From Candidatus Limnocylindrales bacterium (GTDB lineage: Bacteria > Chloroflexota > Limnocylindria > Limnocylindrales > CSP1-4), in contig JBMFSS010000002.1 in NCBI GenBank assembly GCA_049967415.1, positions 87,717 to 151,716 on the forward strand: 64,000 nucleotides of DNA. The letters run 5' to 3'. How positions within the stretch are numbered: position 1 is the first letter of the stretch; each line of letters begins with the position of its first letter. A model generated the notes under the pieces. It had not been told where the DNA came from and did no database searches. It saw nothing but the letters and a program-made list of their open reading frames with translations. This document shows positions 29,674-64,000 of this stretch, piece by piece. A program made the translations under genes and the position numbers.

Positions 29674-29791
29674 GCGGGAAGTATGCTCGCCAGCTCGCCT
29701 GGGCGACATGGCCGGAGGGGGCCGAATCATGCCGCCGTCCGGCCCGGGCCGGTGGATGCGCCCGGCATCGGCGCCTCCCCGCCTTGCGCCC

Positions 29792-37069: not shown

Positions 37070-37504
37070 TCAGGCCGTCGGCCGGCCGCCCTTGGTCTCC
37101 CAGAAGATGTCTCCGAACTCCTTGACGAGCGCCAGTAGATCGGCTGCCGCCTGGGCGTCCACCGTCTGCTTGCACTTGCTGGCCTGCTTCATGATCCGCC
37201 AGACGAGGTCGTGCAGCTGCGGGTACTTCGCCACGTGCTCGGGCTTGAAGTAGTCGCCCCAGATCACCCGCACCTCGTGCTTGACGGACTCGGCGTACTT
37301 CTCCTTGACTTCGACCATGCGGATGAACTGGTTGCGCTGGGTGGGATCGTCGCCGAGGTTCTGGTTCATCAGCTCGACCATGCGAGCCACTGACCGGGCC
37401 CCGTATTCGGCGATCGACGGATCGTAGATCCCGCACGGGATGTCACAGTGAGCGTGGAGCGCGTGGCGCGGCGCGATGGCGGTCTCGATTCGTTCGCGAA
37501 GCAC
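37070..37504 (-). CDS. sodN: Nickel-containing superoxide dismutase precursor
   Basis: A pro-peptide (MLRERIETAIAPRHALHA) is followed by the Ni-hook HCDIPCGIYDP. Confidence 0.92.
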   Translation of the reverse strand: MLRERIETAIAPRHALHAHCDIPCGIYDPSIAEYGARSVARMVELMNQNLGDDPTQRNQFIRMVEVKEKYAESVKHEVRVIWGDYFKPEHVAKYPQLHDLVWRIMKQASKCKQTVDAQAAADLLALVKEFGDIFWETKGGRPTA

Positions 37505-37604
37505 GGTGGTCCCCTCCGGGTACGGGCGTAGACCTGGTCATCGTGCCACGGAAGTGGCCCCCGTGCTCGTTGGCGAGCGGCCCTCGGCCGTTGCCAGGGG
37601 CGGG

Positions 37605-43814: not shown

Positions 43815-43852
43815 GGTCGTGAACAGCGTACTCGACCTGGGCCGTTGATCCG

Positions 43853-44269
43853 TCAGATGCGCAGACCCAGGACCCGTTTCTCACGCAGCGCGAGGCTCAG
43901 CGCCAGCGCCACCGCACTGACGACGAGCGCCGCCATGACGGCGACCCAGAGCACCCCGAGAGTGAACGGTCGGGCCGGCCAGCCGTAGATCGTGAAGCCC
44001 AGCTGCAGCCGGTCGCTGGTGAGCGCGAGCACCAGCACCATCGCCGTGTTGATCGCCACCCCCGCCAGACCCAGAGTCAAGACGTTGAGCGGCAGCGCCA
44101 GCAATCGAGCTATCGGGCGCAGGCAGGTGTTGAGCAGGCCCAGGATGATTGCGACCAGCAGGAGCTTCCACCAGTCGGGTCCGACGTCGAACTGGAGACC
44201 GGGGACCAGCTCCACCGCGGCCAGCAGGGCCGCGGCGTTGATCCCGATCGGGATCAGCATGTCCAGCAC
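43853..44269 (-). CDS. Holin-family small membrane protein (Phage_holin_4_2/YvlD-like)
   Basis: 138 aa with 3-4 TM segments; LVPG...LNTCLRPIARLLALPLNVLTLGLAGVAINT matches the family pattern. Confidence 0.65.
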   Translation of the reverse strand: MLDMLIPIGINAAALLAAVELVPGLQFDVGPDWWKLLLVAIILGLLNTCLRPIARLLALPLNVLTLGLAGVAINTAMVLVLALTSDRLQLGFTIYGWPARPFTLGVLWVAVMAALVVSAVALALSLALREKRVLGLRI

Positions 44270-47305: not shown

Positions 47306-48763
47306 CTATTCCGGCGGGAGCTGGTGCACCTGTTCCAGGGCGAGGCGGTAGAGCCCGGCTCCGTCAACCCCGGTGGACGGCGAGCGCAGCGCGCGGAGGT
47401 TCTCGACCAGCGCACGCTCGAGGCCGGCGTCGGTCAGGCGGTCGAGGATCCGTGCGGCATGGGCCGCAAAGCGGAGCACCTGCAGTGTCTCCGGGCGGGT
47501 CGGGTCATCCCAGAACCAGGCGTCCGAAGCGAACATCGCCAGCCGCGAGGACTGGGCGTTGAGCAGGTCCTGCAGCAGCGCCTCGTGGGCTCGGCGGGCC
47601 CGGGTGGCCGAGGCGCCCGGGCCGTTGATCGGGAGAGCCGCCTCGGCCACGACGCGCGCGACGTATTCAGAGGCCGGGACGTACCCGGCGGCGACGTCGG
47701 CGTACCCGTCGCGGGCCTGCCACGGGTCCACGCCGATTGGCTTCAGCAGCGCATCGGTGAGCGTGTCGATGGCGGCCGCGAGCCGGTCCAGGGCCAGGCG
47801 CAGGGGCTGCTTCCAGCGGCCGTCAACGGCGTCCGGGCACTCCGCGCTCCAGCGCAGGACGCCGTGGAGGCACGACCAGCTGGTCCGTTCCCGGATGGTC
47901 ATGATCGGCAGGGCGGGCCGGGTCGCCTCTGCCAGCGCGGCCCCGAGCGTCACCACCTCCAGGCTGGGATCGCCCACGTCGCTGCCGTACCAGCTGGTCA
48001 GCCGCGCGAGGAAGAGCTCCCGGAACCCTTGGTGGTGACCGTAGAGCTCGCCGTCGGTGGCGATCAGCGCCAACGGCGGGTCCCCCGAAGGCAGTGGCTC
48101 CGCCAGCCGGGGCAGCACCCGGCCGCGCACGAAGTCGTCCGCGTTCTGGGTCGCACCGGGGTCGAAGCTGACCGCCGTGGACAGGTCACGGTCGTAGAAC
48201 ATCACCAGCATCGAGTGGCCGCCCCCAACCTCCACTCGGTACGGTCGACGGGTGTCGAGGTCGCCATCCGTGCCCGCCTGCCACGGCGCGAGGATCGTGT
48301 AGCCGATCCCCTCCTCGGCGCACAGGCGCAGAGTGAGCAGATCGACCGCCGTCTCGGGGAGCCATATCCCGGCTGGGCGGTGTCCGTACCGCAGTGCAAA
48401 ATCGCGGATGCCCCAGCGGATCTCCGTCCGCCGGTCGCGTATGGGAGCGAGGGGAAGGATGATGTGGTGCCAGGGAAGCGCCATCGCGTTCGAGCCGTCG
48501 TCCTGCTCCGCGATGGCCCTGTACAGGTCCGGCCGGTGCTGCTGCAGCCACAGCGCGAGGGTGGGGCCCAGGTCCCACCCGATATGCCGGAAGTTGCCGC
48601 GCAACGCGTTCGGGGCGTAACACTCGTCGGTGACGCGGTCGGTCCAGTCGTGGGCCGGGGCGGCGCTTGGGTCCGGCGGTACCTCGCCGGTGAACGGATC
48701 CCGCCTGTCGGGCTGGTAGAAGTGGCCGTGAACGGCGAGTCGAGGACGGGCCGGGCTGGTCAT
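47306..48763 (-). CDS. Glycoside hydrolase family 57 protein (GH57 N-terminal domain plus C-terminal domain)
   Basis: LAVHGHFYQPDRRDPF is the GH57 N-terminal signature. Confidence 0.75.
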   Translation of the reverse strand: MTSPARPRLAVHGHFYQPDRRDPFTGEVPPDPSAAPAHDWTDRVTDECYAPNALRGNFRHIGWDLGPTLALWLQQHRPDLYRAIAEQDDGSNAMALPWHHIILPLAPIRDRRTEIRWGIRDFALRYGHRPAGIWLPETAVDLLTLRLCAEEGIGYTILAPWQAGTDGDLDTRRPYRVEVGGGHSMLVMFYDRDLSTAVSFDPGATQNADDFVRGRVLPRLAEPLPSGDPPLALIATDGELYGHHQGFRELFLARLTSWYGSDVGDPSLEVVTLGAALAEATRPALPIMTIRERTSWSCLHGVLRWSAECPDAVDGRWKQPLRLALDRLAAAIDTLTDALLKPIGVDPWQARDGYADVAAGYVPASEYVARVVAEAALPINGPGASATRARRAHEALLQDLLNAQSSRLAMFASDAWFWDDPTRPETLQVLRFAAHAARILDRLTDAGLERALVENLRALRSPSTGVDGAGLYRLALEQVHQLPPE

Positions 48764-48802
48764 GCGCTGGGACCGTTCATGCGCTGGCCCGGCGGATCTG
48801 GA

Positions 48803-51223
48803 TCATGGCCGGGGCGCGAGCTCTTCCGCCAGGTGGTCGCGCGAGCTGACCACGTCGCAGCGCACGGTGACGGATCGGACCTCGCCGGGCTCCAGCGCGA
48901 GCGGCCAGCGGAGGAGCAGGCAGCTGCCCTGGTACTGGCGTTCGAACCCGGCCTCGGAGTTCGAGACCGTCTCGACCGGGTACCAGGCCACGTCGGCGGG
49001 CGGCTGCAGGCTGGCCGTGACGCTGGCTCCCTCGGCATCGTTGCCGAAGGCCACCCAGGGCAGGACCCCGGGGCGCTGCGCCGAGTCGTGGGCATACCGC
49101 GCGGACCCCGCCGGCGCAGCGGCCGGGACCGTGTAGTGGGCCGCCGGGTTGCCGCCCCCACCGGCAAGGTCCACGTTCCACTCGAGGACCAGGTCGATCA
49201 CGATGCGGGTGCCACCGCGGTGCTGCACGGCCACCTCGAGCTCGAGGGACGGATCCAGTCGGCCGCCGCCGGACCGGAAAGTCTTCGTCACCCGGACCGG
49301 CTGGCCATCGATCCGGCCGTCCCGTGCCGCGACCAGTTCTGCCTGGCCCAGCCGCGTCACCCGGTAGGGGGAGTCGACCAGGTCACCCAGCTCCGTGTAC
49401 TCCTGGAGCCGGAAATCTTCCGGCGTGGTTCCCTGCGGGACCGCATGCAGCAAGCCCGAGCGCCGCTCGTGGCGATCGTAGATCAGGAGCCGGCTGAGCC
49501 CCGGCTCCTTGGTCATCACGATGTCGTGGATTGTCCTGGGAGCCTCGCCCGGCCCCGCGCCATCCGGCCCAGCGACGCTGCCCGGCTGAGCCCCGGTTTC
49601 TGCCGCCGCGCGCGCCTCGTGCTCCCGGAGCGTGGCGTGGTACGCCTCCGGCCGGCGTCGCATGACCGACGCCAGTGCCAGGCGCGTGGCCCGCAGGTCC
49701 CAGCTGCCGAGGGCCGCGCCCTCCTCGAGGTCCACCGTGAGCACCTGCCCGGATCCCGCGAGGTAGGCCTCGGGCACCCCGTCCAGGTCGGTGTCGAGGA
49801 GCGCGGCGCCGTTCGCCGGCGCGGCGATCAAGGCTTCCGCGGCCCGGCTCCGGGAGGCCTGGAACGGGCCGCCGGGGCTCGCGTTCCCGGGGGCGGCAGG
49901 TTCCCCGCCGCGAAGGGCAGGTTCCCCGCCGCGAAGGGCAGGTTCCCCGCCGCGAAGGGCAGGTTCGCCGCCGGGGACGATATCGCCCGGGGCGCGATCG
50001 CCGGGGACGGGATCGCCCCCCGTGGCGTCGCGCATGCGAACGCGGTCGGCCAGATCTTCCGCGGCGATGAGGTGTGCACAGGTGGCCAGGCGCATGTGCA
50101 CGATATAGATCCCGCCGAAGAGCCCGTGCCAGTAACAGTCGTTGGACTGCCCCCGGTACAGGTGATCCAGCGCCGCTTCCCGTTCGGGGCCCGGCGGCAT
50201 CCCGGCGACCTTGGCCGACACCCGCAGCATCTGCTTGTGAAGGTCGTTGATCTCCCGGTAACGAGCCTGGAAGTTACGCCAGAACCCGCCGTGCAGGTAG
50301 CGCTTTTCCGGCAGATCCTCCTCAAACGCACGCTTGACGAGCGCGGTGAAAACGGTGGACTGGTCCGGTGGCAGGGCCCACTCCCCCATCTCGATATAGG
50401 AGGCGGTGGGCACGTAGACGCGCCCCACGGGGGGCTCGCGGTCGAGCCAGGCCGAGGGCGTCACCGTCGCCAGCCAGTCGGTGTTCTCCTCCAGCAGGTC
50501 GAAGAAACGGTCGATCCAGCGGCCCCGCCCCCAGCAGTGCTCGTACGTGCCCGGCCACGCGCCGAACTTCTCGCCGTCATCGCCCATGAAGCCGAGCCGC
50601 CGCCCGTCGTCCGTGGCGTGGTCGCGCAGGTGGGCGATCACGTCTTCCGGGGCCCCGAACGGGATCCGGTACCGCAGGCCCTGCTCCGTGCCGAAGACGC
50701 GCAGCAGGCGCCCCTGGTCCTCGGTCACGTACGCACCCCACATCTCGTCTTCCGCGATCGCGGCGGCCCGGAAGTGGTTGTCGTCGAGAATGGTCCACTC
50801 GTAGCCCGCGTCGGCCAGCACCGACGGGAGCTGGGGCTCCCACACGCGCTCTGCCAGCCAGGCGCCGCGGGGTCGACGGCCGAAGAGCCGTTCCACGCCG
50901 TCCGCCATGCGCAGCAGCTGGCCGCGCCGGTCCCGCTCGGGCAGGGAAACCAGGACCGGCTCGTAATAGCCGCCTCCCAGCACCTCGACCTGGTCGCGCG
51001 CCACGAGCGCACCCAGGCGCGAGATGAATTCCGGATGCGCAGCGCCGACCCATTCGATCAGGGGACCGGTGTAGTGGAGGGAGAGGCGGACGCCAGGGTG
51101 TCGCTCGAGGGCGCCCAGGAGCGGCTGATACGCCTTCTGGAAGACGTCCTCGAAGACCCAGCCGAAGTTGCCAACCGGTTGATGGTTGTGGATCGCGAGC
51201 GCGAGTGCAATGCGGCCGCTCAC
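48803..51223 (-). CDS. GH57-family alpha-glucan-active enzyme (branching-enzyme/amylopullulanase-like), 806 aa, with an internal 7-aa tandem repeat
   Basis: ALAIHNHQPVGNF...EWTILDDNHF (GH57 catalytic region), and an internal GGEPALR x4 linker. Confidence 0.8.
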   Translation of the reverse strand: MSGRIALALAIHNHQPVGNFGWVFEDVFQKAYQPLLGALERHPGVRLSLHYTGPLIEWVGAAHPEFISRLGALVARDQVEVLGGGYYEPVLVSLPERDRRGQLLRMADGVERLFGRRPRGAWLAERVWEPQLPSVLADAGYEWTILDDNHFRAAAIAEDEMWGAYVTEDQGRLLRVFGTEQGLRYRIPFGAPEDVIAHLRDHATDDGRRLGFMGDDGEKFGAWPGTYEHCWGRGRWIDRFFDLLEENTDWLATVTPSAWLDREPPVGRVYVPTASYIEMGEWALPPDQSTVFTALVKRAFEEDLPEKRYLHGGFWRNFQARYREINDLHKQMLRVSAKVAGMPPGPEREAALDHLYRGQSNDCYWHGLFGGIYIVHMRLATCAHLIAAEDLADRVRMRDATGGDPVPGDRAPGDIVPGGEPALRGGEPALRGGEPALRGGEPAAPGNASPGGPFQASRSRAAEALIAAPANGAALLDTDLDGVPEAYLAGSGQVLTVDLEEGAALGSWDLRATRLALASVMRRRPEAYHATLREHEARAAAETGAQPGSVAGPDGAGPGEAPRTIHDIVMTKEPGLSRLLIYDRHERRSGLLHAVPQGTTPEDFRLQEYTELGDLVDSPYRVTRLGQAELVAARDGRIDGQPVRVTKTFRSGGGRLDPSLELEVAVQHRGGTRIVIDLVLEWNVDLAGGGGNPAAHYTVPAAAPAGSARYAHDSAQRPGVLPWVAFGNDAEGASVTASLQPPADVAWYPVETVSNSEAGFERQYQGSCLLLRWPLALEPGEVRSVTVRCDVVSSRDHLAEELAPRP
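49896..49976 (-). repeat. In-frame 21-nt tandem repeat (3 perfect units plus 1 degenerate) encoding (GEPALRG)n inside the GH57 gene
   Basis: gcaggttccccgccgcgaagg x3, then gcaggttcgccgccgggg. Confidence 0.8.
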
Positions 51224-51251
51224 CGCCCTCTCTCCTCCCTGTCGATTCTGG

Positions 51252-53432
51252 TCAGGTGGCTCTCGCGCGCCGGCTGGATCTCCGGGCCCGTCCGACCGGT
51301 GTCGAAGCCGCGGGCAAGTAGAGCTGCTCGACGTACTCCTCGAGCATGCGCGTCGTGGAGAACTGCCAGATGGTGCTGCGGATGGACTCGCGCACCGTGG
51401 CCAGCCAGGCCCCGGGGAGCCCGTCGCGATCGCGCTCGTAGTAGCGCGGAACCACCTCTTCCTCCAGCAGCCGGTAGAGCTCCTGCGAGTCGGCCCAGTC
51501 CTGTGCCCCCTCGTCGGGGTTGGTGGTGCGGCCGCCGATGGCCCAGCCGTTGGTGCCCGACCACGCCTCGTCCCACCAGCCGTCGAGGACCGAGAGGTTG
51601 ACGACGCCGTTGGCCGCCGCCTTCATGCCGCTCGTCCCGGATGCCTCCAGCGGTCGTCGCGGGTTGTTGAGCCAGACATCCACGCCCTGGATCAGGAACC
51701 GCGCGACGCGCATGTCGTAGTCCTCGATGATGAAGACGCGGCCTTTCAGGCGTGGCGAACGGCTCCGTTCCCAGATCTCCTGGATCACGCGCTGGCCCGG
51801 CCGGTCGGCGGGATGCGCCTTGCCGGCGAAGATCACCTGGACCGGCCGCTCGGGGTTCCAGAGGATGCGGGCGAGCCGATCCTCGTCGCTGAAGAGGAGG
51901 GAGGCGCGCTTGTAGGTCGCGAAGCGGCGCGCGAAGCCGATCGTGAGTGCAGCCGGGTCGACCACGTGGCTGAGGGCCTGGAGCTCTTCGGGCGGCTCGC
52001 CGTGGCGCGCGAGCTGGCTGAGCAATCGGCCGCGTGCGAAGTGCGCGAGCTCGAGCTTCTGCCGCGCGTGCGCCGCCCAGAGCTGGTGGTCGCCGATCTG
52101 GCCGAGCCGGTCCCAGAAGCGGCGGGCCCGAACCTCGGGGTCCAGGTCGTCGAGATCGCCGTCAAGCTCCTCGTAGAGGCTGCGCAGCGGCCGTCCGACC
52201 CAGCTCGGCACGTGGATCCCGTTGGTGATGCCGAGGATGGGGCGCTCGAGGATCCCCTGCCAGGTGGCGTTGGCGGTCTGCGCATGCAGGTGGCTGACCG
52301 CGTTGGCCCCGTTGGTCAGGCGCAGGCTGAAGGCCGTCATGTCGAACTGCGACGGGTCACCTTCTGCGCCGCGCCCCAGCTCCAGGACCCGGTCGAGGTC
52401 TACCCCGTCCGGCCCGCCCAGGGGTGCAGCGAGCCGCTGGACAAGGCCCGCGTCGAATCGCTCGTTCCCGGCCGAGACGGGCGTGTGAATGGTGAAGACG
52501 GAGTTCCGGCGGACCTGCGCCGCGGCCTCTTCGAAGGGAGTGCCCTGGGCTACCAGCTCGCGGGTGCGCTCGACCAGCATCATGGCCGAATGCCCCTCGT
52601 TGAGATGCCAGACCACCGGCTGGATCTGCAGTGCCCGCAGCGCCCGCACCCCGCCCACGCCCAGGACCATCTCCTGGCAGAAGCGCATCTCGCGGCCGCG
52701 GACGTACAGCATCCCCGTGATGGGGCGGTCCTCGGGGGCGTTCTCGCCGATGTCGGTGTCGAGGAGGAGCAAGGGGACGCGGCCCACCTGTGCCAGCCAG
52801 ACGGCGCACCAGACGGTCCGGCCCGGCAGCTCCACCGGCACCACCAACGGGTCGCCCTCGGACGAGGCGACCCGCAGCAGCGGCAGGCGCAGCGGGTCGT
52901 AGTCGGGGTAGGCGTGCTCCTGGTGGCCGTCGGCGTCGATGGTCTGGCGGAAGTAGCCGCGGCGGTAGAAGAGCCCCACGGCCACGAAGGGGAGGGCCAT
53001 GTCGGAAGCCGTCTTGGCGTGGTCCCCGGCCAGGACCCCGAGCCCGCCGGAGTAGATCCCCATCGACTCGGTCAGCCCGTACTCGGCGCAGAAGTAGGCA
53101 ATCGGGCCGCTCAGGGCGTTGGCGTGGTGCCGTGCGAACCAGTGCCCCGTGCCGTTCGCCATGTAGTGCTGGAAGTCCCGCATGATGGTGTCGTACTCGG
53201 CCATGAACGCGGGGTTCTCGAGCAGGTCGCTCCAGCGCTGGTGGCTCATGAGGATCGAGATGGGGTTGCGATAACGCGACCACGCCCCCGGGTCGATGCG
53301 GGAGAAGAGCTGCCGCACCTCGGGGTGCCAGGTCGAGTACAGGTTGTACGCGAGGGCCCGGAGCCCTTCCAGCTGGGCCGGGAGCCGAATGGCCGGTGGC
53401 AGGAGGGTCGGAACAGAGGGAGCGGTCTGCAT
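51252..53432 (-). CDS. glgP: Alpha-glucan phosphorylase (glycogen/maltodextrin phosphorylase, GT35)
   Basis: 726 aa; ...AYFCAEYGL..., EASGTSGMKAAANG (PLP-Lys motif of GT35). Confidence 0.9.
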   Translation of the reverse strand: MQTAPSVPTLLPPAIRLPAQLEGLRALAYNLYSTWHPEVRQLFSRIDPGAWSRYRNPISILMSHQRWSDLLENPAFMAEYDTIMRDFQHYMANGTGHWFARHHANALSGPIAYFCAEYGLTESMGIYSGGLGVLAGDHAKTASDMALPFVAVGLFYRRGYFRQTIDADGHQEHAYPDYDPLRLPLLRVASSEGDPLVVPVELPGRTVWCAVWLAQVGRVPLLLLDTDIGENAPEDRPITGMLYVRGREMRFCQEMVLGVGGVRALRALQIQPVVWHLNEGHSAMMLVERTRELVAQGTPFEEAAAQVRRNSVFTIHTPVSAGNERFDAGLVQRLAAPLGGPDGVDLDRVLELGRGAEGDPSQFDMTAFSLRLTNGANAVSHLHAQTANATWQGILERPILGITNGIHVPSWVGRPLRSLYEELDGDLDDLDPEVRARRFWDRLGQIGDHQLWAAHARQKLELAHFARGRLLSQLARHGEPPEELQALSHVVDPAALTIGFARRFATYKRASLLFSDEDRLARILWNPERPVQVIFAGKAHPADRPGQRVIQEIWERSRSPRLKGRVFIIEDYDMRVARFLIQGVDVWLNNPRRPLEASGTSGMKAAANGVVNLSVLDGWWDEAWSGTNGWAIGGRTTNPDEGAQDWADSQELYRLLEEEVVPRYYERDRDGLPGAWLATVRESIRSTIWQFSTTRMLEEYVEQLYLPAASTPVGRARRSSRRARAT

Positions 53433-53614
53433 CAGTGGATGCGATGCTACACGAAGCCGCGTCGATAAACCGATTTACTCGGCACCCCGGGCCGGGACCG
53501 GCGCGACCGGGGAAGTGCTTCCAGCCCGGTGCGGGTGAAGCCCGGGGGCCGGCCGGTGTGCGACGGCTCCGGTGCGGGGCCGCAGGGCGCCCGGCTGGCG
53601 TACCATCCGGATCC

Positions 53615-55093
53615 ATGCGGATCGCGATGGTGAGCTCCGAGTGTGAGCCGTTTGCCAAGACCGGCGGGTTGGCCGACGTGGTAGATGCCCTGGCCCGGGC
53701 GCTGGGGGAGATGGGCCACCAGGTGGACGTCTACCTGCCGCGCTACCGGGGCCTGGAGGCTCCCGGGCCTGTCACCCGGACCACGGTTTTCGTTCCGGCG
53801 TCGGGGGGGCCGGGAACATCCTTCGCAGACGTCCTCTCCGCCCGGGCCGACGGCTACCGCCTCCGGCTGGTCGACCACCCGTACAGCTACGACCGGGCCG
53901 GTCTCTACGGCGAGGCCGGCTCGGACTACCCGGACAACGGAGCACGCTTCGCGCTGCTGGGCCAGGTGGCGCTGGAGACGATCCGGGCCGAAGGGGGCGG
54001 GGTCTCGGTCCTGCACGGGCACGACTGGCAGTCCGGCCCGGCGGTGCTGCTGCGCGATCACCGGTACGGCAGCGATCCGCTGCTCGCGGGGATGGCCACC
54101 CTGGTCACGTGCCACAACCTCGCCTACCACGGCTGGGTCCCGCGCGAACGGGCAGCCGATCTGGGACTGCCGCCCAGCGTTGGACGCCCCGATGGCGTGG
54201 ACCTGCTGCGCGAGGCGGTCGTGGCGGCTGACATGGTGAACACGGTCAGCCCGACCTACGCGCTGGAGTCAAGGACGCCCGAGTACGGCGCGGGGCTGGA
54301 CGACGTGCTGCGGGGACGGGGGGACCGGTATGTCGGGATCCTGAACGGGATCGACCGCCGGCTCTGGGACCCGGCTTCCGACCCGGCGCTGCCCAGCCGG
54401 TACTCGGCCCGGGACCTGGACGGCAAGCGGGCGTGCAAGGCCGAGCTGTGCTCCCGGCTGGGGATCGACGCCCGGCCGGACGACCGGAGCGGGCGAGGTG
54501 CCCCGCTGTTCGGGATGGTGGGGCGGCTCGACCCGCAGAAGGGGTTCGACCTGCTGACCGGAGCCGCCGAAGCGATGGTGGAGGCGGGCGGCCGCCTGGT
54601 GATCCTGGGCACCGGTGACGAGCGGCTGGTGGCGGGACTGCGGGAGACGGCGTTGCGCCACCCGGGCCGGGTCGCCGTCCTGGAGCGCTTCGACCGGGAT
54701 GAGGCGCGCCGCGTCTACGCGGCCAGTGACCTGCTCCTGATGCCCTCCCGGTTCGAGCCGTGCGGGCAGAGCCAGATGATCGCGATGCGCTACGGCACCA
54801 TCCCCGTGGTCCGGGCAACCGGCGGGCTGGCCGATACCGTGCGCGACGCGGATGCCGATCCGGCCGACGGCGACGGGTTCGTCTTCGGACCGCCGGCCGC
54901 CAGCGCCCTGGTGGACGCGGCGACGCGGGCGATGGCCGCCTACCGGGACCCGGGCCGCTGGCAGGCGCTGATGCGCCGGGCCATGGCGCGGGACTTCTCC
55001 TGGGCGGCCTCCGCACCGCGGTACCTGGACGCTTACCGGCGGGCGCTCGAGATCCGGCAGGCGGCCCCCGGGGGCGCGGCGCCCCGCTTCTGA
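53615..55093 (+). CDS. glgA: Glycogen synthase (GT5, ADP/UDP-glucose type)
   Basis: MRIAMVSSECEPFAKTGGLADVV (KTGGL motif), ...HCHDWQ-like HGHDWQS, C-terminal PSRFEPCGQSQM. Confidence 0.92.
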   Translation: MRIAMVSSECEPFAKTGGLADVVDALARALGEMGHQVDVYLPRYRGLEAPGPVTRTTVFVPASGGPGTSFADVLSARADGYRLRLVDHPYSYDRAGLYGEAGSDYPDNGARFALLGQVALETIRAEGGGVSVLHGHDWQSGPAVLLRDHRYGSDPLLAGMATLVTCHNLAYHGWVPRERAADLGLPPSVGRPDGVDLLREAVVAADMVNTVSPTYALESRTPEYGAGLDDVLRGRGDRYVGILNGIDRRLWDPASDPALPSRYSARDLDGKRACKAELCSRLGIDARPDDRSGRGAPLFGMVGRLDPQKGFDLLTGAAEAMVEAGGRLVILGTGDERLVAGLRETALRHPGRVAVLERFDRDEARRVYAASDLLLMPSRFEPCGQSQMIAMRYGTIPVVRATGGLADTVRDADADPADGDGFVFGPPAASALVDAATRAMAAYRDPGRWQALMRRAMARDFSWAASAPRYLDAYRRALEIRQAAPGGAAPRF

Positions 55094-55128: not shown

Positions 55129-57096
55129 ATGCTGTTCGACTTCTCGACCGTCACTGCCGACTCGGTCGCGGCGGATACCGACGCGGGCCTTGCGCAGGCC
55201 GACGCCCTTGTCGAGGACGTGGTGCCACGTGGTGGCGCCACGTTCAGAGACACCATGCTGCCGCTTGACCAGGCCCTGGATCGTGTGCAGGTGGCATACG
55301 GCCAGGGCGCGTTCATGGCCCGGGTGCATCCGGACGCCGCGGTTCGTGCTGCCGGCCAGCGTTCAGAGGAGCGGCTTGCCAAGTGGCGCGTCGCGCTGCT
55401 CTTCCGGGCAGACCTCTACCGGGCCATCCGCTCCTATGCCGCAACCGCCGAGGGGCAGGCGCTCGCCGGGGAGCGGTTGCGCCTGGTCGAGCACTGGCTG
55501 CGCGACTTCCGGCGTGCCGGGCAGGAACTGCCCGCGCCCGCCCGGGACGAGCTCGAGCGGTTGCGCGCGCGCCTGGTCGAGCTGGAGGTGGCTTTCCAGC
55601 GCAATGTCGACGAGTTTCAGGACGGGCTGGAGCTGACGCGCGAGGAGCTCGCCGGGCTGCCCGAATCGTACGTGGATCGGCTGCCGGCCGGGACCCGGCC
55701 GGGAACCTGGAGAGTCGGGCTCGAATACCCCAGTGTCTTCCCCTTCCTGGATCAGTCGGAACGGCGCGATCTCCGCGAGCAGCTGGAGTTCAAGCTCTTC
55801 AACCGCGCCGCCACCGTCAACCGGCCGGTCATTGCGGAGGCGCTGGAGATCCGGAAGCGGATCGCCGCGCTGTTCGGCCTGCCCTCGTGGGCGCACTACG
55901 CGCTCGAGGTCAAGATGGCCCGGGACCCGGAGGCGGTCCAGCGCTTCTACGAGCAGCTGGTGCCGCCCCTCCAGTCCAAGGCGCGTGACGAGATCGCGCG
56001 TCTCGGCCGGCTGCTGGAGGCCGGGACCGGGGATCCGGTGCTGCGCTCGTGGGACTGGCGGTACTACGACAACCAGATCCGACGCACGGAGTTCGGGCTG
56101 GACCAGAACGTGGTCGCGGAGTACCTGCCCCTGGAACGCGTCATGGAGGGCCTGCTCGACCTGACCGGCGAGGTGTTCGGGCTGGAGTACCAGCGGATCG
56201 ATCCGGCGCTGGCCTGGCACCCCGACGTGGCGCTGTACGAGATCCACGACCGTGCCACGGGCACCCGCATCGCGCGCTTCTACGCCGACCTCTTCCCGCG
56301 CGAAGGCAAGTTCGGGCATGCCGCCGTCTTCCAGCTCGTTTCCGGCCACCGCCGACCCGACGGCTCGTACGTAGAACCTTCCTGTGCGATCGTGGCCAAC
56401 CTGACCCGGCCGTCGGTCGATCAGCCGTCGCTGCTCCGGCATGACGAGGTGGTGACGCTCTTCCACGAGTTCGGCCACGTGCTCCACCACTCCCTGTCGC
56501 GGACCGAGTTCGTGCGTTTCTCGGGGACCGAGACGGAGCCGGATTTCGTGGAGGCCCCCAGCCAGATCATGGAGCATTGGGCCTGGGACGCATCGGTCCT
56601 GCGCCGCTTCGCGCGGCACTATCGAACCGGCGAGCCCATGCCGGAGGCGCTGGTCGAGCAGCTCGTGCGCGCCCGGGACCTGAACGTCGGGATCCGGATG
56701 CTTCGGCAGGTCTCCCTGGGCCTGCTCGACATGGGTTTCCACGACACCGCGCCAGAGCGCGACCTGGACGCCATCAACCGGGAGTCCTGGTCGGTCATCG
56801 GGCTCCCGTACCACGAGGGCACGTTCTACGCGGGCGGCTTCGAGCACCTCTTCGGGGGCTACGACGCCGGCTACTACGGGTATCTCTGGTCCAAGGTCTA
56901 CGGAGACGACATGTTCGGGCGGTTCCGGGCAGCAGGCGTGACGAACCCGGAGGTGGGGGCAGCCTACCGGCGCGAGATCCTGGAATCGGGCGGATCCCGG
57001 GATGCCGCGGAGATGCTGCGCGCCTTCCTGGGCCGCGAGCCGTCGAACGCCACCTTCCTGGAGCTGCTGGGGATCGAGCCGGGCCCGCCCGCCTGA
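55129..57096 (+). CDS. M3-family zinc metallopeptidase (oligopeptidase/Dcp-like)
   Basis: TLFHEFGHVLHH (HEXXH) and the downstream E. Starts at MLFDFSTVTADS. Confidence 0.88.
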   Translation: MLFDFSTVTADSVAADTDAGLAQADALVEDVVPRGGATFRDTMLPLDQALDRVQVAYGQGAFMARVHPDAAVRAAGQRSEERLAKWRVALLFRADLYRAIRSYAATAEGQALAGERLRLVEHWLRDFRRAGQELPAPARDELERLRARLVELEVAFQRNVDEFQDGLELTREELAGLPESYVDRLPAGTRPGTWRVGLEYPSVFPFLDQSERRDLREQLEFKLFNRAATVNRPVIAEALEIRKRIAALFGLPSWAHYALEVKMARDPEAVQRFYEQLVPPLQSKARDEIARLGRLLEAGTGDPVLRSWDWRYYDNQIRRTEFGLDQNVVAEYLPLERVMEGLLDLTGEVFGLEYQRIDPALAWHPDVALYEIHDRATGTRIARFYADLFPREGKFGHAAVFQLVSGHRRPDGSYVEPSCAIVANLTRPSVDQPSLLRHDEVVTLFHEFGHVLHHSLSRTEFVRFSGTETEPDFVEAPSQIMEHWAWDASVLRRFARHYRTGEPMPEALVEQLVRARDLNVGIRMLRQVSLGLLDMGFHDTAPERDLDAINRESWSVIGLPYHEGTFYAGGFEHLFGGYDAGYYGYLWSKVYGDDMFGRFRAAGVTNPEVGAAYRREILESGGSRDAAEMLRAFLGREPSNATFLELLGIEPGPPA

Positions 57097-57269: not shown

Positions 57270-58598
57270 GTGAGCCGTCAGCGTGTCGTGATCATGGGAG
57301 CCGCCGGGCGCGACTTCCATGACTTCAACGTCGCCTATCGCAACGATCCGGAGGTGGAGGTGGTGGCGTTCACCGCCACCCAGATCCCGGGCATCGCCGA
57401 CCGGCGCTATCCACCGGAACTGGCCGGGGAGCTCTACCCCAACGGCATCCCGATCGTGCCCGAGGATGCGCTCGACCGGGTCATCCGGGACGAGCGGGTC
57501 GATACCGTGGTCTTCGCCTACAGCGACGTGTCGCATGAGCACGTGATGCACAGCGCGTCGCGTGCGTTGGCCCAAGGGGCCGACTTCGTGCTCCTGGGTC
57601 CGGCTCGAACCATGATCGAGAGCAGCCGGCCGGTGATCGCCGTGTGCGCGGTTCGCACCGGTTCGGGCAAGAGCCAGACCACGCGCCGCGTCGCGACGAT
57701 CCTGGACGAGCTGGGGCTCCGGCCCGTGGTGATCCGGCACCCCATGCCCTACGGGGACCTGGCCGCGCAGAAGGTCCAGCGCTATGCCGAGTACGCCGAC
57801 CTGGACCGCTACGAGACCACCATCGAGGAGCGCGAGGAGTACGAGCCGCACCTCGACGCGGGGCACGTCGTCTATGCCGGCGTGGACTACGGCGCCATCC
57901 TGCGCCAGGCGGAGCAGGAGGCCGACGTCATCCTCTGGGATGGCGGCAACAATGACTTCAGCTTCTACCGACCCGACCTGACGATCGTGGTGGCCGACCC
58001 GCTCCGCGCTGGCGACGAGCTCCGGTACCACCCCGGCGAGACCAACCTGCGCCTGGCTGACGTGATCGTGGTCAACAAGATCGATTCGGCGAGCCCGGAG
58101 CAGCTGGCCCTGCTCCGCGAGCACATCGGCCAGGTGAACCCGCACGCCGCGCTCATCGAGGCGCGTTCCCGGCTGGAGCTGGTGGGCGGTGAGATCGAGG
58201 GCAAGCGTGTGGTGGTGGTCGAGGATGGGCCCACCCTCACGCACGGCGGCATGACCTACGGCGCCGGGATCGTGGCCGCGCGACGCTTCGGTGCGCAGCT
58301 CGTGGAGCCGGCCCCGTACGCAGTCGGCAGCATCCTGGCCACGCTGCAGCGATACCCGGCGCTCCAGCCGCTGCTGCCGGCCATGGGCTATGGCGAGCAG
58401 CAGATCCACGAGCTCCAGGAGACGCTGAACGCGGTGCCCGCGGACCTGGTGCTCGCGGCCACGCCGATCGACCTGCGTCGCGTCCTGACCCTGAACAAGC
58501 CCATCGTGCGCGTCCGCTACGAACTCGACGAGGCGAGCGGCCCGTCGCTGCGCGGGCTCGTGGAGCAGGCGGTTCGCCGGGCGCCCACCAGGTCCTGA
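57270..58598 (+). CDS. P-loop protein resembling the cyclic 2,3-diphosphoglycerate synthetase (cPGS) family
   Basis: GTG start; VVIMGAAGRDFHDFNVAYRNDPEVEVVAF (N-terminal Rossmann-like segment) ...AVCAVRTGSGKSQTTRRV (Walker A). 442 aa. The family assignment comes from recalled architecture, not an alignment. Confidence 0.5.
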   Translation: MSRQRVVIMGAAGRDFHDFNVAYRNDPEVEVVAFTATQIPGIADRRYPPELAGELYPNGIPIVPEDALDRVIRDERVDTVVFAYSDVSHEHVMHSASRALAQGADFVLLGPARTMIESSRPVIAVCAVRTGSGKSQTTRRVATILDELGLRPVVIRHPMPYGDLAAQKVQRYAEYADLDRYETTIEEREEYEPHLDAGHVVYAGVDYGAILRQAEQEADVILWDGGNNDFSFYRPDLTIVVADPLRAGDELRYHPGETNLRLADVIVVNKIDSASPEQLALLREHIGQVNPHAALIEARSRLELVGGEIEGKRVVVVEDGPTLTHGGMTYGAGIVAARRFGAQLVEPAPYAVGSILATLQRYPALQPLLPAMGYGEQQIHELQETLNAVPADLVLAATPIDLRRVLTLNKPIVRVRYELDEASGPSLRGLVEQAVRRAPTRS

Positions 58599-58687
58599 AC
58601 AGGCCCCGGGCCGCTGCGCCCCGAGATCCCGTGGAGGGCCGGCCGGCCGGCCCTCCACGCAGCGTCACGGAACAGGAGGTATGTCGA

Positions 58688-59683
58688 ATGCCCGGATCCA
58701 CTGACCCGGTCGCACCGGGGGCACCCGCCCCGGCCGCTGGCCAGACACGCCACTATCTGACGGTTGCGTCGTTGTCGCCCCAGGAGTTCGCCCGCCTGCT
58801 CTCCCTGTCGCGCCGGATGAAGGAGACGCCGGCGGCGTGGCGGCAGGCCATCCCGGCCGGCAAGCTGGCGATGATCTTTGACAAGCCGTCGACCCGGACT
58901 CGGGTCAGCTTCGAGGCGGCTGCAGTGAACCTGGGGATGCATCCCCTGATGCTGCGTCCCGACGAACTGCAGATCGGGCGGGGCGAGCCGCCGCAGGACA
59001 CCGCGCGCGTCCTCTCCCGCCTGGTGGACGCCATCGCCTGGCGGACCTTCTCGCACGAGCGGCTCGAGGCGTTTGCTTCGTACTGCACGATCCCGGTGGT
59101 CAACGCGCTGACTGACACCCACCACCCCTGCCAGGCGCTGGCGGACCTGATGACCATCGAGGAGTCAATCGGCTCCCTGCCCGGGCGCCGGCTCGCCTAT
59201 GTCGGCGACGGCAACAACGTCGCGCACTCCCTCATCGAGGCCGGGGCGCTGGCGGGCCTGCACGTGGTGCTCGCCACGCCCGAGGGGTACGAGCCCGATG
59301 GCTCCATCGTGGCCGCCGCGCGTGAACGCGGCCGCCAGACCGGCGCCAGCGTCGAGATCGTGCGCGACCCGGCCGAGGCCGTGCGGGAGGCGGATGCCGT
59401 GTACACGGACGTGTGGACGTCCATGGGCGAGGAGCAGGAGCGCGAGGCGCGCCGGCAGGCGTTCCGTGGCTACGTGGTGAGCCCGGCGCTGATGGCCCTG
59501 GCCGCGCCGCACGCGATCTTCCTGCACTGCCTGCCGGCCCACCGGGGGGAGGAGGTCGAGGAAGCGGTCATCGAAGGGCCGCGCTCGCGGGTCTGGGACG
59601 AGGCCGAGAACCGGCTCTGGACGGAGCAGGCCGTCCTCTATGCGCTGCTGACCGGCGACTGGCGCGGCGATCGGATCGGCTGA
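58688..59683 (+). CDS. argF: Ornithine carbamoyltransferase
   Basis: STRTRVSFE (carbamoyl-phosphate binding), HPCQ and HCLP motifs. AGGAGG lies 8 nt upstream of the ATG. Confidence 0.9.
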   Translation: MPGSTDPVAPGAPAPAAGQTRHYLTVASLSPQEFARLLSLSRRMKETPAAWRQAIPAGKLAMIFDKPSTRTRVSFEAAAVNLGMHPLMLRPDELQIGRGEPPQDTARVLSRLVDAIAWRTFSHERLEAFASYCTIPVVNALTDTHHPCQALADLMTIEESIGSLPGRRLAYVGDGNNVAHSLIEAGALAGLHVVLATPEGYEPDGSIVAAARERGRQTGASVEIVRDPAEAVREADAVYTDVWTSMGEEQEREARRQAFRGYVVSPALMALAAPHAIFLHCLPAHRGEEVEEAVIEGPRSRVWDEAENRLWTEQAVLYALLTGDWRGDRIG

Positions 59684-59776
59684 GGCAGGCTCGCAAGCGG
59701 CGCCTGCACCGGCGACCCCACGCGCTGCCGCGTGGCCTGAGCCGTGCCGCGGAGCTGACTCGGGCAAATTGCCCGG

Positions 59777-60262
59777 TCACTCCTCCTCGGCGTGCGCCTC
59801 GATGCCGTTCTCCGCGTCCAGGAACGGCAGGATCACTCGTTCCTCCTGCTCGAAGTGCGCGCTCATGAGGGCGTGGAGCCCGTACAGTCGCGCGCGCAGG
59901 TCCACCAGCTGGCGGTGCGAGGGCTCCCGCCGCAGGGCCAGCCAGTCGGCCTCCAGCCGTTCCACGAACTGCCGGATCTGCTGGTGTTGCAGCCGCAGCA
60001 GCCGCGTGGCCCACGGGGTGCCGGCCAGGCGGTCCATCTCCGGGTAGCAGAAGTTGTCCTCCCAGTCGAGATGCGGGAGGAGCGTCTTCTCAACCGAGTC
60101 GAGCAGGCTGCGCAGCGCGCTTGCAAGGTCGCGGGCCGCGAGGTTCCCGGCCATCTCGGCGGTCGCCTCGATGCGAGTGACGACGTGCTCCATCTCCCGG
60201 TGTTCGTGGCCCAGGATGCGGCGCTCGATCGCCACGCCTTGCCGCTGTGATGTGGCCATGCC
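59777..60262 (-). CDS. Hemerythrin HHE cation-binding domain protein
   Basis: Multiple H/E ligands in a four-helix pattern (HEHREMEH...HLDWEDNFCYPE...HALMSAHFEQEE). Starts at MATSQRQG. Confidence 0.7.
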   Translation of the reverse strand, partial: GMATSQRQGVAIERRILGHEHREMEHVVTRIEATAEMAGNLAARDLASALRSLLDSVEKTLLPHLDWEDNFCYPEMDRLAGTPWATRLLRLQHQQIRQFVERLEADWLALRREPSHRQLVDLRARLYGLHALMSAHFEQEERVILPFLDAENGIEAHAEEE

Positions 60263-60449: not shown

Positions 60450-62834
60450 ATGGCTCAGGCGCGCGAGGAGGCCCGCATCGGGCGGCGACTCGAGGTTTCC
60501 GGGATCGTGCAGGCGGTGGGGTTCCGGCCCTTTGTCTATCGGCTTGCCCGTGAGCTTGCGCTGGACGGGCGGGTGCGCAACGCCGCTGGACGGGTCGAGA
60601 TCGAGGCCGCGGGCACCCTGTCGCAGCTGGACGCCTTCGCCCATCGCCTGGTCGCCGATGCGCCGCCGCGCGCCCGGGTCGAGCTGCTCACCGCGCAGCC
60701 GCTCCCGGATGGTGCGATGCCTGCGCCGGGGAGCGGCTTCGCGATCCTGGAAAGCGTCGCCGCGGTCTCGGCCGAACGTCTCTTTCCGCCGGACATCGCG
60801 ACCTGCGACGACTGCCTGCGTGAACTGTTTGACCCGCAGGACCGCCGCTACCGCTACCCCTTCATCAACTGCACGAACTGCGGGCCGCGCGCCACCATCA
60901 TCGAGGACCTGCCCTACGATCGCCCGCGCACGTCCATGCGGGCGTTCCCGCTCTGCCCGGATTGCGAGGCCGAGTACCGCGATCCCGGGAATCGCCGGTT
61001 CCACGCGGAACCGGTCGCCTGCCCCAGCTGCGGGCCGCAGCTCGTCTACCGACGGTCCGGTGATCCGGCTCCGGGGGCGGTCCGCGAGGCCGCGCTCCAG
61101 GCCGCGATCGCAGACCTTGCCGCCGGCCGCATCGTGGCGGTCAAGGGGTTGGGCGGCTACCACCTCGCCTGCGACGCGACCAACGCCAGCGCCGTGGCCC
61201 GGTTGCGAGACCGCAAGCAGCGCTGGGCCAAGCCGTTCGCGGTCATGGTTCGGGACCTGGCCGCGGCGCGGGCGGTGGCACGGGTCACCGACGATGAGGC
61301 GGGGCTGCTCACCTCGCCGGCCCGCCCGATCGTGCTGCTCGAGCGGCGGGCTCCATCGCCCGGGGCCGCGGACGTCCTGGCCGACGGCGTGGCCAACGGT
61401 GACCGGCGGGTGGGTCTCTTCCTGCCCTACACGCCGCTGCACCACCTGCTGCTCGATGGTTTCCCGCGGCCCATCGTGTTGACCAGCGGCAACCTGTCCG
61501 ACGAACCGCTGGTCACCGACGACGCGGAGGCGCTGGTCCGCCTGGGTGCGATCGCGGACGCGTTCCTCCAGCACGACCGCGAGATTCGTGCCCGCTACGA
61601 CGACTCGGTGACGAGGGTCGTGGCCGGCCGCGAATCCATCCTGCGCCGAGGGCGCGGCTACGCTCCCGATCCGCTGGACCTCCCCGTCGCGGCGCCCTGG
61701 CCGCTCCTGGCCGTGGGCGCCGAGCTGAAACACACGTTCACGCTCGCCTCGGGACGCCGTGCCTACGTCGCGCCGCACACGGGGGACCTGGAGGATCTGC
61801 TGACCTTCCGCGCCTTCGAGGGAAACCTGGCGCACCTTGGACGGCTGCTGGCACTGGAGCCGCAGATCGCCGCCCATGATCTGCACCCCGCCTACCTGTC
61901 CACCCAGTACGCCGTCCGGCACTTTCCCGCCGCGCGGCGCGTGGGCGTGCAGCACCACCATGCGCACCTGGCGTCCTGCGCCGCGGAGGCCGGGCTGCGC
62001 GGCCCGTTCCTGGGCGTCGTCTACGACGGGCTGGGGATGGGGGACGATGGCACCTTCTGGGGCGGCGAGGTCATGGTCGCTGACCTGGCGGCCTACCGGC
62101 GCGTGGCGCGGTTCGCGCTGGCGCCGCTGCCCGGGGGCGCGCTGGCCGTGCAGAAGCCCTACCGCATGGCACTTGGCTACCTGTTCGGGCTGGAGCAGGA
62201 TGACGTGACCATGCGTCCCGACTTTCCCGCCGCGACTCCCCGTCAACTGGCCGACCTTGCCGGCGCGTTCCTGGATCGACTGGTGCCCAGGGAGGTCGCG
62301 ATCGTGCGGACCCAGGTGGCCCGGCGGCTCAACACCCCGCTGGCGTCGAGCGCCGGGAGGCTCTTTGACGCAGTGAGCAGCCTGCTGGGAATCCGTGACG
62401 TGTCCGAGTACGAGGGGCAGGCGGCCGTGGAGCTGGAGGCCCGCGCCGACTTCGGCATCCGGGCCGGGCCGCTGCCGTACCGGCTGGCCAGCCGGGGCGA
62501 GCTGCTGGTGTACGACCCCGCGCCTACCCTGGCTGCTCTGCTGGAGGCACGGACGGCCGGCGTTCCCGCCGCGACCCTGGCGGCGCGTTTCCATGAGACC
62601 ATCGCCGAGCTCACCCGGGAACTCTGCGCCGCGGGGCGCCGGGCCAGCGGGCTCCGGACCGTGTGCCTGTCGGGCGGCGTGTTTCAGAACCAGTGGCTGG
62701 CCGAAGCCCTGCTTGCGCGGCTCACCGCGGACGGGTTCGAGCCGTTCATCAACCGCCGCGTCCCGGTGAACGACGGCGGGATCAGCTACGGGCAGGCCGC
62801 GGTCGCTGCTGCGCGCCTCGCCGCGGGAGCGTAG
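60450..62834 (+). CDS. hypF: [NiFe]-hydrogenase maturation carbamoyltransferase HypF
   Basis: Acylphosphatase domain (RRLEVSGIVQAVGFRPFVYRLA), two CxxC-x18-CxxC zinc fingers (CDDCLREL...CTNCGPR; CPDCEAEY...CPSCGP), YrdC-like and Kae1-like domains. Confidence 0.93.
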   Translation: MAQAREEARIGRRLEVSGIVQAVGFRPFVYRLARELALDGRVRNAAGRVEIEAAGTLSQLDAFAHRLVADAPPRARVELLTAQPLPDGAMPAPGSGFAILESVAAVSAERLFPPDIATCDDCLRELFDPQDRRYRYPFINCTNCGPRATIIEDLPYDRPRTSMRAFPLCPDCEAEYRDPGNRRFHAEPVACPSCGPQLVYRRSGDPAPGAVREAALQAAIADLAAGRIVAVKGLGGYHLACDATNASAVARLRDRKQRWAKPFAVMVRDLAAARAVARVTDDEAGLLTSPARPIVLLERRAPSPGAADVLADGVANGDRRVGLFLPYTPLHHLLLDGFPRPIVLTSGNLSDEPLVTDDAEALVRLGAIADAFLQHDREIRARYDDSVTRVVAGRESILRRGRGYAPDPLDLPVAAPWPLLAVGAELKHTFTLASGRRAYVAPHTGDLEDLLTFRAFEGNLAHLGRLLALEPQIAAHDLHPAYLSTQYAVRHFPAARRVGVQHHHAHLASCAAEAGLRGPFLGVVYDGLGMGDDGTFWGGEVMVADLAAYRRVARFALAPLPGGALAVQKPYRMALGYLFGLEQDDVTMRPDFPAATPRQLADLAGAFLDRLVPREVAIVRTQVARRLNTPLASSAGRLFDAVSSLLGIRDVSEYEGQAAVELEARADFGIRAGPLPYRLASRGELLVYDPAPTLAALLEARTAGVPAATLAARFHETIAELTRELCAAGRRASGLRTVCLSGGVFQNQWLAEALLARLTADGFEPFINRRVPVNDGGISYGQAAVAAARLAAGA

Positions 62835-62849
62835 AGGAGGCAATCCGCC

Positions 62850-63188
62850 GTGTGTCTGGGCATCCCGGGGAAGGTGATCGAGATCCGCGACGAGGGCGGG
62901 CTCGCCATGGGGCGCGTCGACTTCGGGGGCGTGCGCAAGGAGGCCTGCCTGGCGTACGTGCCGGAGGTCACGGTTGGCGACTACGTCATCGTGCACGTGG
63001 GCTTCGCCATCAGCACCGTTGACGAGGAGGAGGCGCTTCGGACGCTGGAGCTGCTGGACCAGATGGGCGACCTGGTGGACCAGGAACTCGCCACCATGGG
63101 CCCGGGCATGGACGCGCCCGCGGTGGTCGACCTGGGTCCGGGAGGGGCCGCCCTCGCGAGTGGCGGCCTCGGGCAGGGGCAGCCGTGA
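62850..63188 (+). CDS. hypC: [NiFe]-hydrogenase maturation factor HypC
   Basis: [12 protein letters not shown] (GTG start; the essential Cys2 is present). GGAGG lies 8 nt upstream. Confidence 0.9.
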
Positions 63189-64000
63189 AGTACGTTGACG
63201 AGTTCCGCGACGGGCGCAAGGCGCAGACCCTGGTCCACGAGATTCACCGGATCACGACGCGCCCCTGGACCATCATGGAGGTCTGCGGCGGCCAGACCCA
63301 CACGATCGTGAAGCAGGGGATCGACGAGATGCTCCCTGCCGGCGTGCGCATGATCCATGGGCCCGGCTGCCCGGTATGCGTCACGCCGCTGGAGCAGGTC
63401 GACAAGGCGCTGGCGATCGCCGCCGACCCGAACGTGATCTTCACCAGCTACGGCGACATGCTGCGCGTCCCGGGCTCGACCACGGACCTGCTGGCGCTGC
63501 GGGCACGGGGGGCGGACGTGCGGACCGTCTACTCGCCGCTGGACGCGGTGCGCCTCGCGCGCGAACACCCGGATCGCCAGGTGGTCTTCTTTGCGATCGG
63601 CTTCGAGACCACCGCACCGGCCAACGCGATGGCGGTCTGGCAGGCGGCGGAGCAGGGGATCGAGAACTTCAGCGTGCTGGTCAGTCACGTGCTGGTACCG
63701 CCCGCCATGGAGGCGATTCTGGAATCGCCCTCCAATCTGGTCCAGTCCTTCCTGGCCGCCGGGCACGTCTGCGCCGTGATGGGCTGGACCGAGTACGAGC
63801 CGATTGCGGCCAAGTACCACGTGCCGATTGTGGTGACCGGCTTCGAGCCGCTCGACCTCCTCGAAGGGATGCTGATGGCGATCCGCCAGCTGGAAGAGGG
63901 CCGCGCGGAGGTTGAGAACCAGTACGCGCGGGCCGTGCGCCGCGAGGGCAACCGGCTCGCCCAGGAGACCGTCTTTCGCGTCTTCGAGATCGGCGACCGG
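63185..64000 (+). CDS. hypD: [NiFe]-hydrogenase maturation factor HypD (3'-partial)
   Basis: GTG start overlapping the hypC stop (GTGA); [14 protein letters not shown] and FEPLD motifs. It runs off the window end and so is not in the ORF track. Confidence 0.88.

Follow-up and report, generated by a model that had tools for sequence, protein, structure and literature searches.

Which function is carried out by the 442-residue P-loop protein encoded directly upstream of argF, the gene for ornithine carbamoyltransferase (OTC), in Candidatus Limnocylindrales (Chloroflexota)? The gene lies in a stretch of 64,000 nucleotides (contig JBMFSS010000002.1, positions 87,717 to 151,716, of assembly GCA_049967415.1; hereafter the window). 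An initial annotation, made from the letters of the window, had likened its product to archaeal cyclic 2,3-diphosphoglycerate synthetase (cDPGS), considered synthesis of a compatible solute as its role, and found the pairing with argF unexplained. We conclude that the protein is very probably a bacterial orthologue of arginine synthetase, the ATP-forming arginine deiminase ArcE, as judged from its full-length similarity to archaeal family members. As ArcE and OTC are the first two, consecutive steps of the arginine synthetase pathway, this also explains why the two genes adjoin each other. The gene is referred to as arcE below; all features are listed in Table 1.

In BLASTP comparisons, the window protein shared 65% identity with P0356 of Pyrococcus furiosus (PF0547) across 439 aa (599 bits) and 66% with P0403 of Thermococcus sp. 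across 436 aa. These Thermococcales proteins came from a homologue search that started from the archaeal representative P0136. P0356 was taken as the P. furiosus ArcE because it adjoins hypC and hypD in P. furiosus COM1 and these neighbours match the locus tags given for arcE, hypC and hypD (PF0547/0548/0549 and PFC_01860/01865/01870) in Supplementary Table 1 of a 2026 paper (PMC13260591). Primers annealing in TK2200, the arcE gene of Thermococcus kodakarensis, encode MAEKKKKRVLI... and ...KNCEKLKK* (PMC13260591), matching the termini of P0356 (MAEKKRRRVVI... and ...KKCEKLKK) and of P0403. The link to TK2200 is made via this supplementary table, the hypC/hypD neighbours and the primer-encoded termini.

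TK2200, formerly a "hypothetical protein" or "putative GTPase", was singled out as complementary in distribution to arcA and as lying close to arcB and arcC (Michimori, Yokooji & Atomi, PNAS 2024; PMC11032458). The enzyme catalyses the reversible reaction L-arginine + ADP + Pi <-> L-citrulline + NH3 + ATP with an equilibrium constant (Keq) of about 10, i.e. near equilibrium, has L-arginine, free ammonia and ADP as its specific substrates (8% relative activity with GDP), and forms the "arginine synthetase pathway" together with OTC (ArcB) and carbamate kinase (ArcC) (PMC11032458); further TK2200 genetics were published in the 2026 follow-up (PMC13260591). According to the discovery paper, arcE homologues occur in numerous bacteria, Chloroflexi among them, and in a small number of eukaryotes (PMC11032458), and the taxonomic spread of the homologues retrieved here agrees with that report (Chloroflexi, Acidobacteria, Caldisericum-type bacteria and a few eukaryotes). 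The identity of ArcE has accordingly been known since 2024; the window gene is a further bacterial, uncultured member of the family, for which the argF pairing is already explained.

Shared between the window protein and ArcE/TK2200 are full-length orthology, length, a two-domain P-loop architecture, an LpxK-like core and the clustering with arcB/arcC. The window differs in its bacterial host, which has a GC content of about 72% and is not obviously a hyperthermophile, in that arcE adjoins arcB, whereas TK2200, TK0871 and TK2158 are dispersed in T. kodakarensis, and in the local absence of arcC; the activity of the window protein is, moreover, a predicted one. Two homologues are mentioned separately: P0162 (45% identity), a full-length protein from the eukaryote Creolimax fragrantissima (Ichthyosporea), in agreement with the remark on few eukaryotes in PMC11032458, and P0250 (806 aa), whose sequence is split by an intein containing a homing-endonuclease domain of the LAGLIDADG type.

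The open reading frame (ORF) starts with GTG and contains both motifs quoted in the initial annotation, the N-terminal VVIMGAAGRDFHDF and the central Walker A sequence. It is clearly a genuine gene, as seen from its codon-position GC (0.74/0.45/0.91), the thousands of homologues (more than 8000 retrieved) and an AlphaFold2 model with a mean predicted local distance difference test score of 92.6 (alignment of 31 diverse homologues). Within VVIMGAAGRDFHDF, G10, G13, R14 and H17 are invariant or near-invariant in the family, and in the Walker A motif R129, T130, G131, G133 and K134 are conserved in at least 90% of ArcE sequences. The best homologue, P0001, is 100% identical, stems from a metagenome-assembled genome (MAG) of Candidatus Limnocylindrales and is named "cyclic 2,3-diphosphoglycerate synthase" at NCBI, a label with which the initial annotation coincides; the IMG name for the ArcE family is "predicted GTPase". 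For P0001, NCBI calls a protein of 434 aa starting at Met9 (57294 instead of 57270), which drops most of the conserved first beta-strand (RVVI) ahead of GAAGRDFH. The GTG at 57270 fits the family alignment better than the start at 57294.

The predicted structure bears on the proposed likeness to cDPGS. The model shows the same two-domain fold as cDPGS (8ORK) with an LpxK-like core, and the fold-level resemblance is real; to this extent the initial annotation was correct. Similarity at the family level did not hold up. Structure-based identity to cDPGS is about 15%; with phmmer, the M. fervidus enzyme (8ORK/8ORU) was not matched at E <= 1, and 9SXB was matched in part, over residues 214-321 (25.6 bits, E 6e-5). 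According to the cDPGS structure paper, the P-loop residues K145 and R146 close on 2,3-diphosphoglycerate and hydrogen-bond it. In the profile alignment, the GTGKR[IV]GKT of both PDB cDPGS sequences falls against a-v-R-T-G-x-G-K-S, with T130 and G131 in the places of K145 and R146, and RTGxGKS is near-invariant in the ArcE family, so that these two residues sit in a motif conserved in at least 90% of its members. The HMMER alignment with cDPGS did not extend to the N-terminal regions and hence to cDPGS E45/K46, the active-site residues contributed by the partner subunit, and a homologue search from a 158-aa M. fervidus cDPGS fragment returned only fragments of up to 273 aa.

Lineage and context point the same way. 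In T. kodakarensis a separate gene, TK1039, is annotated as cDPGS, and P. furiosus ArcE (P0356) is weakly similar to cDPGS; ArcE and cDPGS would therefore be distinct paralogous lineages that differ in substrates, gene neighbourhood and taxonomic range (cDPGS: PDB 8ORK/8ORU, 9SXB), with the window gene in the ArcE lineage. IMG gives true cDPGS fragments and the ArcE family different labels, and no NCBIfam model backs the cDPGS name. The genes next to arcE belong to the arginine pathway and are not glycolytic or 2-phosphoglycerate kinase genes. Cyclic 2,3-diphosphoglycerate (cDPG) is exclusive to hyperthermophilic methanogens (PMC10690619), whereas the best homologues of the window protein are spread over Candidatus Limnocylindrales and numerous further phyla of bacteria and archaea. 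The name given by NCBI looks like a misannotation, and despite that name and the common fold we give practically no credence to the window protein being a cDPGS that makes cDPG as a compatible solute; the arginine-pathway neighbours, the orthology to ArcE and the exchange of K145/R146 speak for arginine synthetase instead.

A Pfam scan of the 442-aa protein returned a single, marginal match, to the cobW/HypB/UreG family (23.3 bits, residues 233-296), and an NCBIfam scan (release 20.0) returned no family for it or for P. furiosus ArcE. Together with the hyp cluster further downstream, the Pfam match raises the reading of a G3E-type (CobW/HypB/UreG-like) metallochaperone NTPase that serves this cluster, for instance by standing in for HypB. 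The match is confined to profile positions 113-179 of 180. With one cysteine, the window protein has no CxCC-type metal site, and most of its relatives have arc genes and no hyp genes as neighbours. Its 65% identity is, besides, to orthologues of an enzyme for which arginine/citrulline chemistry has been demonstrated; that enzyme prefers ADP and has 8% relative activity with GDP. With a weak, partial cobW match and no Cys motif, this reading was rejected as very improbable. The NKID sequence of the window protein is an inheritance from a SIMIBI/G3E-like ancestry.

Gene neighbourhoods were compared in 80 related genome loci from at least eight phyla (Chloroflexota, Acidobacteriota, Caldisericota, Aminicenantes, Myxococcota, KSB1, Calditrichota, Clostridia and several archaeal phyla) whose proteins are 56-74% identical to the window protein, a degree of conservation that is striking for two domains. 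Genes for OTC and/or carbamate kinase follow directly downstream on the same strand in 18 of the 69 loci whose downstream sequence extends for 1 kb or more; such clustering is recurrent. The downstream gene of about 315 aa in related loci passes the NCBIfam equivalog TIGR00746 (carbamate kinase), and tight arcE-arcB-arcC operons are present in L087 and L088 (72-75% identity) and in L091 (83% identity). In P0125 (766 aa), a naturally fused protein, carbamate kinase (residues 3-309; 337 bits for TIGR00746, NF009007 above cut-off) is followed by an ArcE domain (residues 327-766) that shares 53% identity with the window protein. In 16 Anaerolineae-type loci (L011, L012, L013, L014, L016, L019, L022, L027, L037, L038, L044, L046, L048, L049, L060 and L065), argS, encoding arginyl-tRNA synthetase, is the gene directly before arcE and has the same orientation. 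The adjacency is a second, independent genomic link to arginine, of which we met no mention in the ArcE papers. Because of the OTC and carbamate kinase neighbours, argS upstream and the fusion protein, the ArcE family is tied to arginine/citrulline/carbamoyl-phosphate chemistry.

The argF gene of the window, which the initial annotation had placed correctly as a co-oriented downstream neighbour, encodes a complete OTC (Pfam OTCace_N and OTCace; NCBIfam NF001986 at 415 bits, cut-off 306, and TIGR00658 at 388 bits, cut-off 281). Its likely start, the ATG at 58688, is 89 nt past the arcE stop at 58598, and gene calls in close relatives likewise give 331 aa. RNA folding of the 89-nt spacer gave -46.5 kcal/mol (z -2.2), the stem of its hairpin gaining one flanking pair. 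The gap between arcE and arcB measures 4-10 nt in relatives at 72-75% identity and 64-89 nt in those at 83-95%. Attenuation, termination and mRNA stabilisation are conceivable roles of the hairpin. Rfam had no match in the whole window, and a scan around the arcE locus found no sigma-70 promoter and two terminator-like matches, both inside genes.

Table 1. Features of the arcE locus; positions are those of the window.
Feature	Position	Strand	Basis or remark
M3-family oligopeptidase	55129..57096	+	Pfam Peptidase_M3, 3e-123; directly upstream of arcE, also in L085 and L086
arcE, putative arginine synthetase (ATP-forming arginine deiminase)	57270..58598	+	442 aa, GTG start; identity to PF0547 and Thermococcus sp. 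orthologues, AlphaFold2 model
N-terminal motif VVIMGAAGRDFHDF	57285..57326	+	residues 6-19; first strand-loop-helix of Rossmann-like N-domain
P-loop/Walker A, RTGSGKSQT	57654..57680	+	residues 129-137
Walker-B-like motif, WDGGNND	57936..57956	+	W223, G225 and D229 near-invariant; aligns with (I/V)(L/M)EGSG of cDPGS
NKxD-type motif, NKID	58074..58085	+	sequence; in stretch with weak Pfam cobW match and HypB matches
Hairpin in arcE-argF spacer	58631..58658	+	perfect, GC-rich, 12-bp stem, 4-nt loop (GTGGAGGGCCGG-CCGG-CCGGCCCTCCAC), no T-tract
argF/arcB, ornithine carbamoyltransferase	58688..59683	+	331 aa; Pfam, NCBIfam; AGGAGG 8 nt before ATG
Hemerythrin-domain protein	59777..60259	-	about 160 aa; Pfam PF01814; start inferred from 160-aa relatives
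hypF, carbamoyl-phosphate-dependent [NiFe]-hydrogenase maturation carbamoyltransferase	60450..62834	+	Pfam acylphosphatase, zf-HYPF x2, YrdC, HypF_C, HypF_C_2
hypC	62850..63188	+	Pfam HupF_HypC, 6.5e-28
hypD, 5' part	63185..64000	+	Pfam HypD, 3e-111; runs off the window

Carbamate kinase was sought by tblastn in the 64-kb window, without a match; 93 nt after the OTC stop, the convergent hemerythrin gene ends (59683-59777), followed by the hyp cluster. In L091 the order is arcE-arcB-arcC, hemerythrin (-) and hycI-hypA-hypF-hypC-hypD, with carbamate kinase between OTC and the hemerythrin gene (in the stretch L091:3460-4461), and the arrangement without arcC is common to the window and its relatives at 95% and 88% identity. 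On the simplest reading of these gene orders, arcC would have been lost in the sub-lineage of the window. Hyp genes beyond arcE-argF were also seen in L083, L085, L086 and L091, with hypE after hypD in relatives. HypF consumes carbamoyl phosphate, the product of ArcE and ArcB. Genetic work in T. kodakarensis showed that carbamoyl phosphate from ArcE and ArcB goes into pyrimidines and into the maturation of [NiFe]-hydrogenase, and by the locus tags of its Supplementary Table 1 arcE also lies beside hypC/D/F in Pyrococcus sp. ST04; the paper discusses neither the arcE-hyp adjacency nor bacteria (PMC13260591). None of the 80 wider loci contained hypF, hypC or hypD, and the adjacency would therefore be restricted to certain lineages, namely relatives at 83% identity or more and Pyrococcus. 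Its occurrence in the window, P. furiosus and Pyrococcus sp. ST04 is suggestive, a lead rather than a finding.

The main task of the pair arcE-arcB without carbamate kinase might be to make carbamoyl phosphate from arginine, in an ATP-neutral way, for HypF, which provides the cyanide ligands of [NiFe]-hydrogenase. We consider this unlikely as the principal role; such a supply has been shown genetically solely in the archaeon T. kodakarensis (2026; PMC13260591). The hemerythrin gene between the arc genes and the hyp cluster occupies the same position in L085, L086, L089 and L091, and oxygen or iron sensing is a possibility for its product. A nickel-containing superoxide dismutase gene (37070-37537, -; Pfam Sod_Ni, 8.6e-47) lies in the same window as these [NiFe]-hydrogenase maturation genes.

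By orthology, the window enzyme would interconvert arginine + ADP + Pi and citrulline + NH3 + ATP, and OTC would then convert citrulline and Pi to ornithine and carbamoyl phosphate. The P-loop domain is expected to bind Mg-ATP or Mg-ADP. When the enzyme runs towards arginine, the gamma-phosphate would activate the ureido oxygen of citrulline and NH3 would displace the phosphate to give the guanidino group; the catabolic direction would be the reverse, with phosphoryl transfer to ADP as the last step, yielding ATP. Phosphorylation of a substrate oxygen, with later displacement of the phosphate by a nucleophile, has its model in CTP synthase and dethiobiotin synthetase, and phosphorylation of this kind has been proposed for cDPGS in its structure paper. 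Among structural neighbours, LpxK and cDPGS are the closer ones and CTP synthase and dethiobiotin synthetase are distant. LpxK (PDB 4EHX/4EHY), the tetraacyldisaccharide 4'-kinase, is a membrane-associated lipid A kinase that has 14% identity and no N-terminal Rossmann-like domain, and the synthetase domain of CTP synthase, dethiobiotin synthetase and cobyrinic acid a,c-diamide synthase (SIMIBI) have low similarity and other substrates, so that the analogy to them bears on the mechanism by inference.

In the window host, the catabolic, ATP-yielding direction from arginine to citrulline is the more likely one, because relatives carry arcC in the operon and an oligopeptidase gene lies upstream. 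The enzyme would then occupy the metabolic position of ArcA in the arginine deiminase pathway (arginine to citrulline and NH3, ahead of ArcB and ArcC); ArcA differs from ArcE in having an unrelated fold and in being hydrolytic and irreversible, conserving no ATP. No Pfam match to arginine deiminase families was found among the window ORFs scanned. Without arcC in the cluster, carbamoyl phosphate would probably pass to the adjacent HypF, to pyrimidine synthesis or to a carbamate kinase encoded elsewhere.

The same enzyme might instead run biosynthetically, OTC acting anabolically on ornithine and carbamoyl phosphate to give citrulline, and ArcE making arginine from citrulline, NH3 and ATP in place of argininosuccinate synthetase and lyase. 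T. kodakarensis does make arginine from citrulline through ArcE, the reaction being reversible in vitro, and a biosynthetic role was proposed by the authors for some bacteria without argG/argH (PMC11032458). The window fits in so far as arcC is absent from its cluster and no argG/argH was seen in its 64 kb, which says nothing on the whole genome. Against this stand carbamate kinase in the same operon of relatives at 83% and 72-75% identity, a catabolic signature, and the oligopeptidase as upstream gene; we regard the biosynthetic direction as rather improbable.

Several points weigh against assigning the window protein as a catabolic arginine synthetase. Its activity is deduced from orthology at 65% identity, no bacterial ArcE has been assayed, and the discovery paper left the roles of ArcE outside T. 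kodakarensis unevaluated (PMC11032458). The NKxD-type motif and the weak cobW match are retained, and arcC is missing from the window. The direction of flux concerns a reaction close to equilibrium (Keq about 10) and is judged from 64 kb of DNA, and the phosphoryl-isourea mechanism is drawn from related P-loop enzymes.

The assignment gives a specific published function to a gene labelled "cyclic 2,3-diphosphoglycerate synthase" or "predicted GTPase" in public databases, and the main practical value of the finding is this correction. Given more than 8000 homologues and no model in NCBIfam release 20.0, the misannotation is likely widespread, and the wrong label could prompt the inference of compatible-solute synthesis in mesophilic bacteria. 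Metabolic reconstructions from Chloroflexota MAGs would gain either a further ATP-yielding step in the breakdown of arginine or a direct conversion of citrulline to arginine in one step. With arcC apparently lost and a hyp cluster adjoining, the locus offers a testable lead, that arginine may supply carbamoyl phosphate for hydrogenase maturation in a bacterium.

Elsewhere in the window, a glycogen/alpha-glucan cluster (47306-55093), syntenic with L089, encodes two GH57 enzymes (one of the 4-alpha-glucanotransferase type), a DUF3417 glucan phosphorylase and glycogen synthase. Overlapping Memo-like and radical-SAM genes (27597-29883, -) form a typical AmmeMemoRadiSam pairing, and a single ORF at 41790-43880 (-) combines homocysteine S-methyltransferase and methylenetetrahydrofolate reductase domains. 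Two ORFs have no Pfam match: one of 492 aa at 21797-23275 (+) with a strong coding signature (GC at the third codon position, GC3, of 0.91), and one of 579 aa at 11914-13653 (+) with a weaker one (GC3 0.84).

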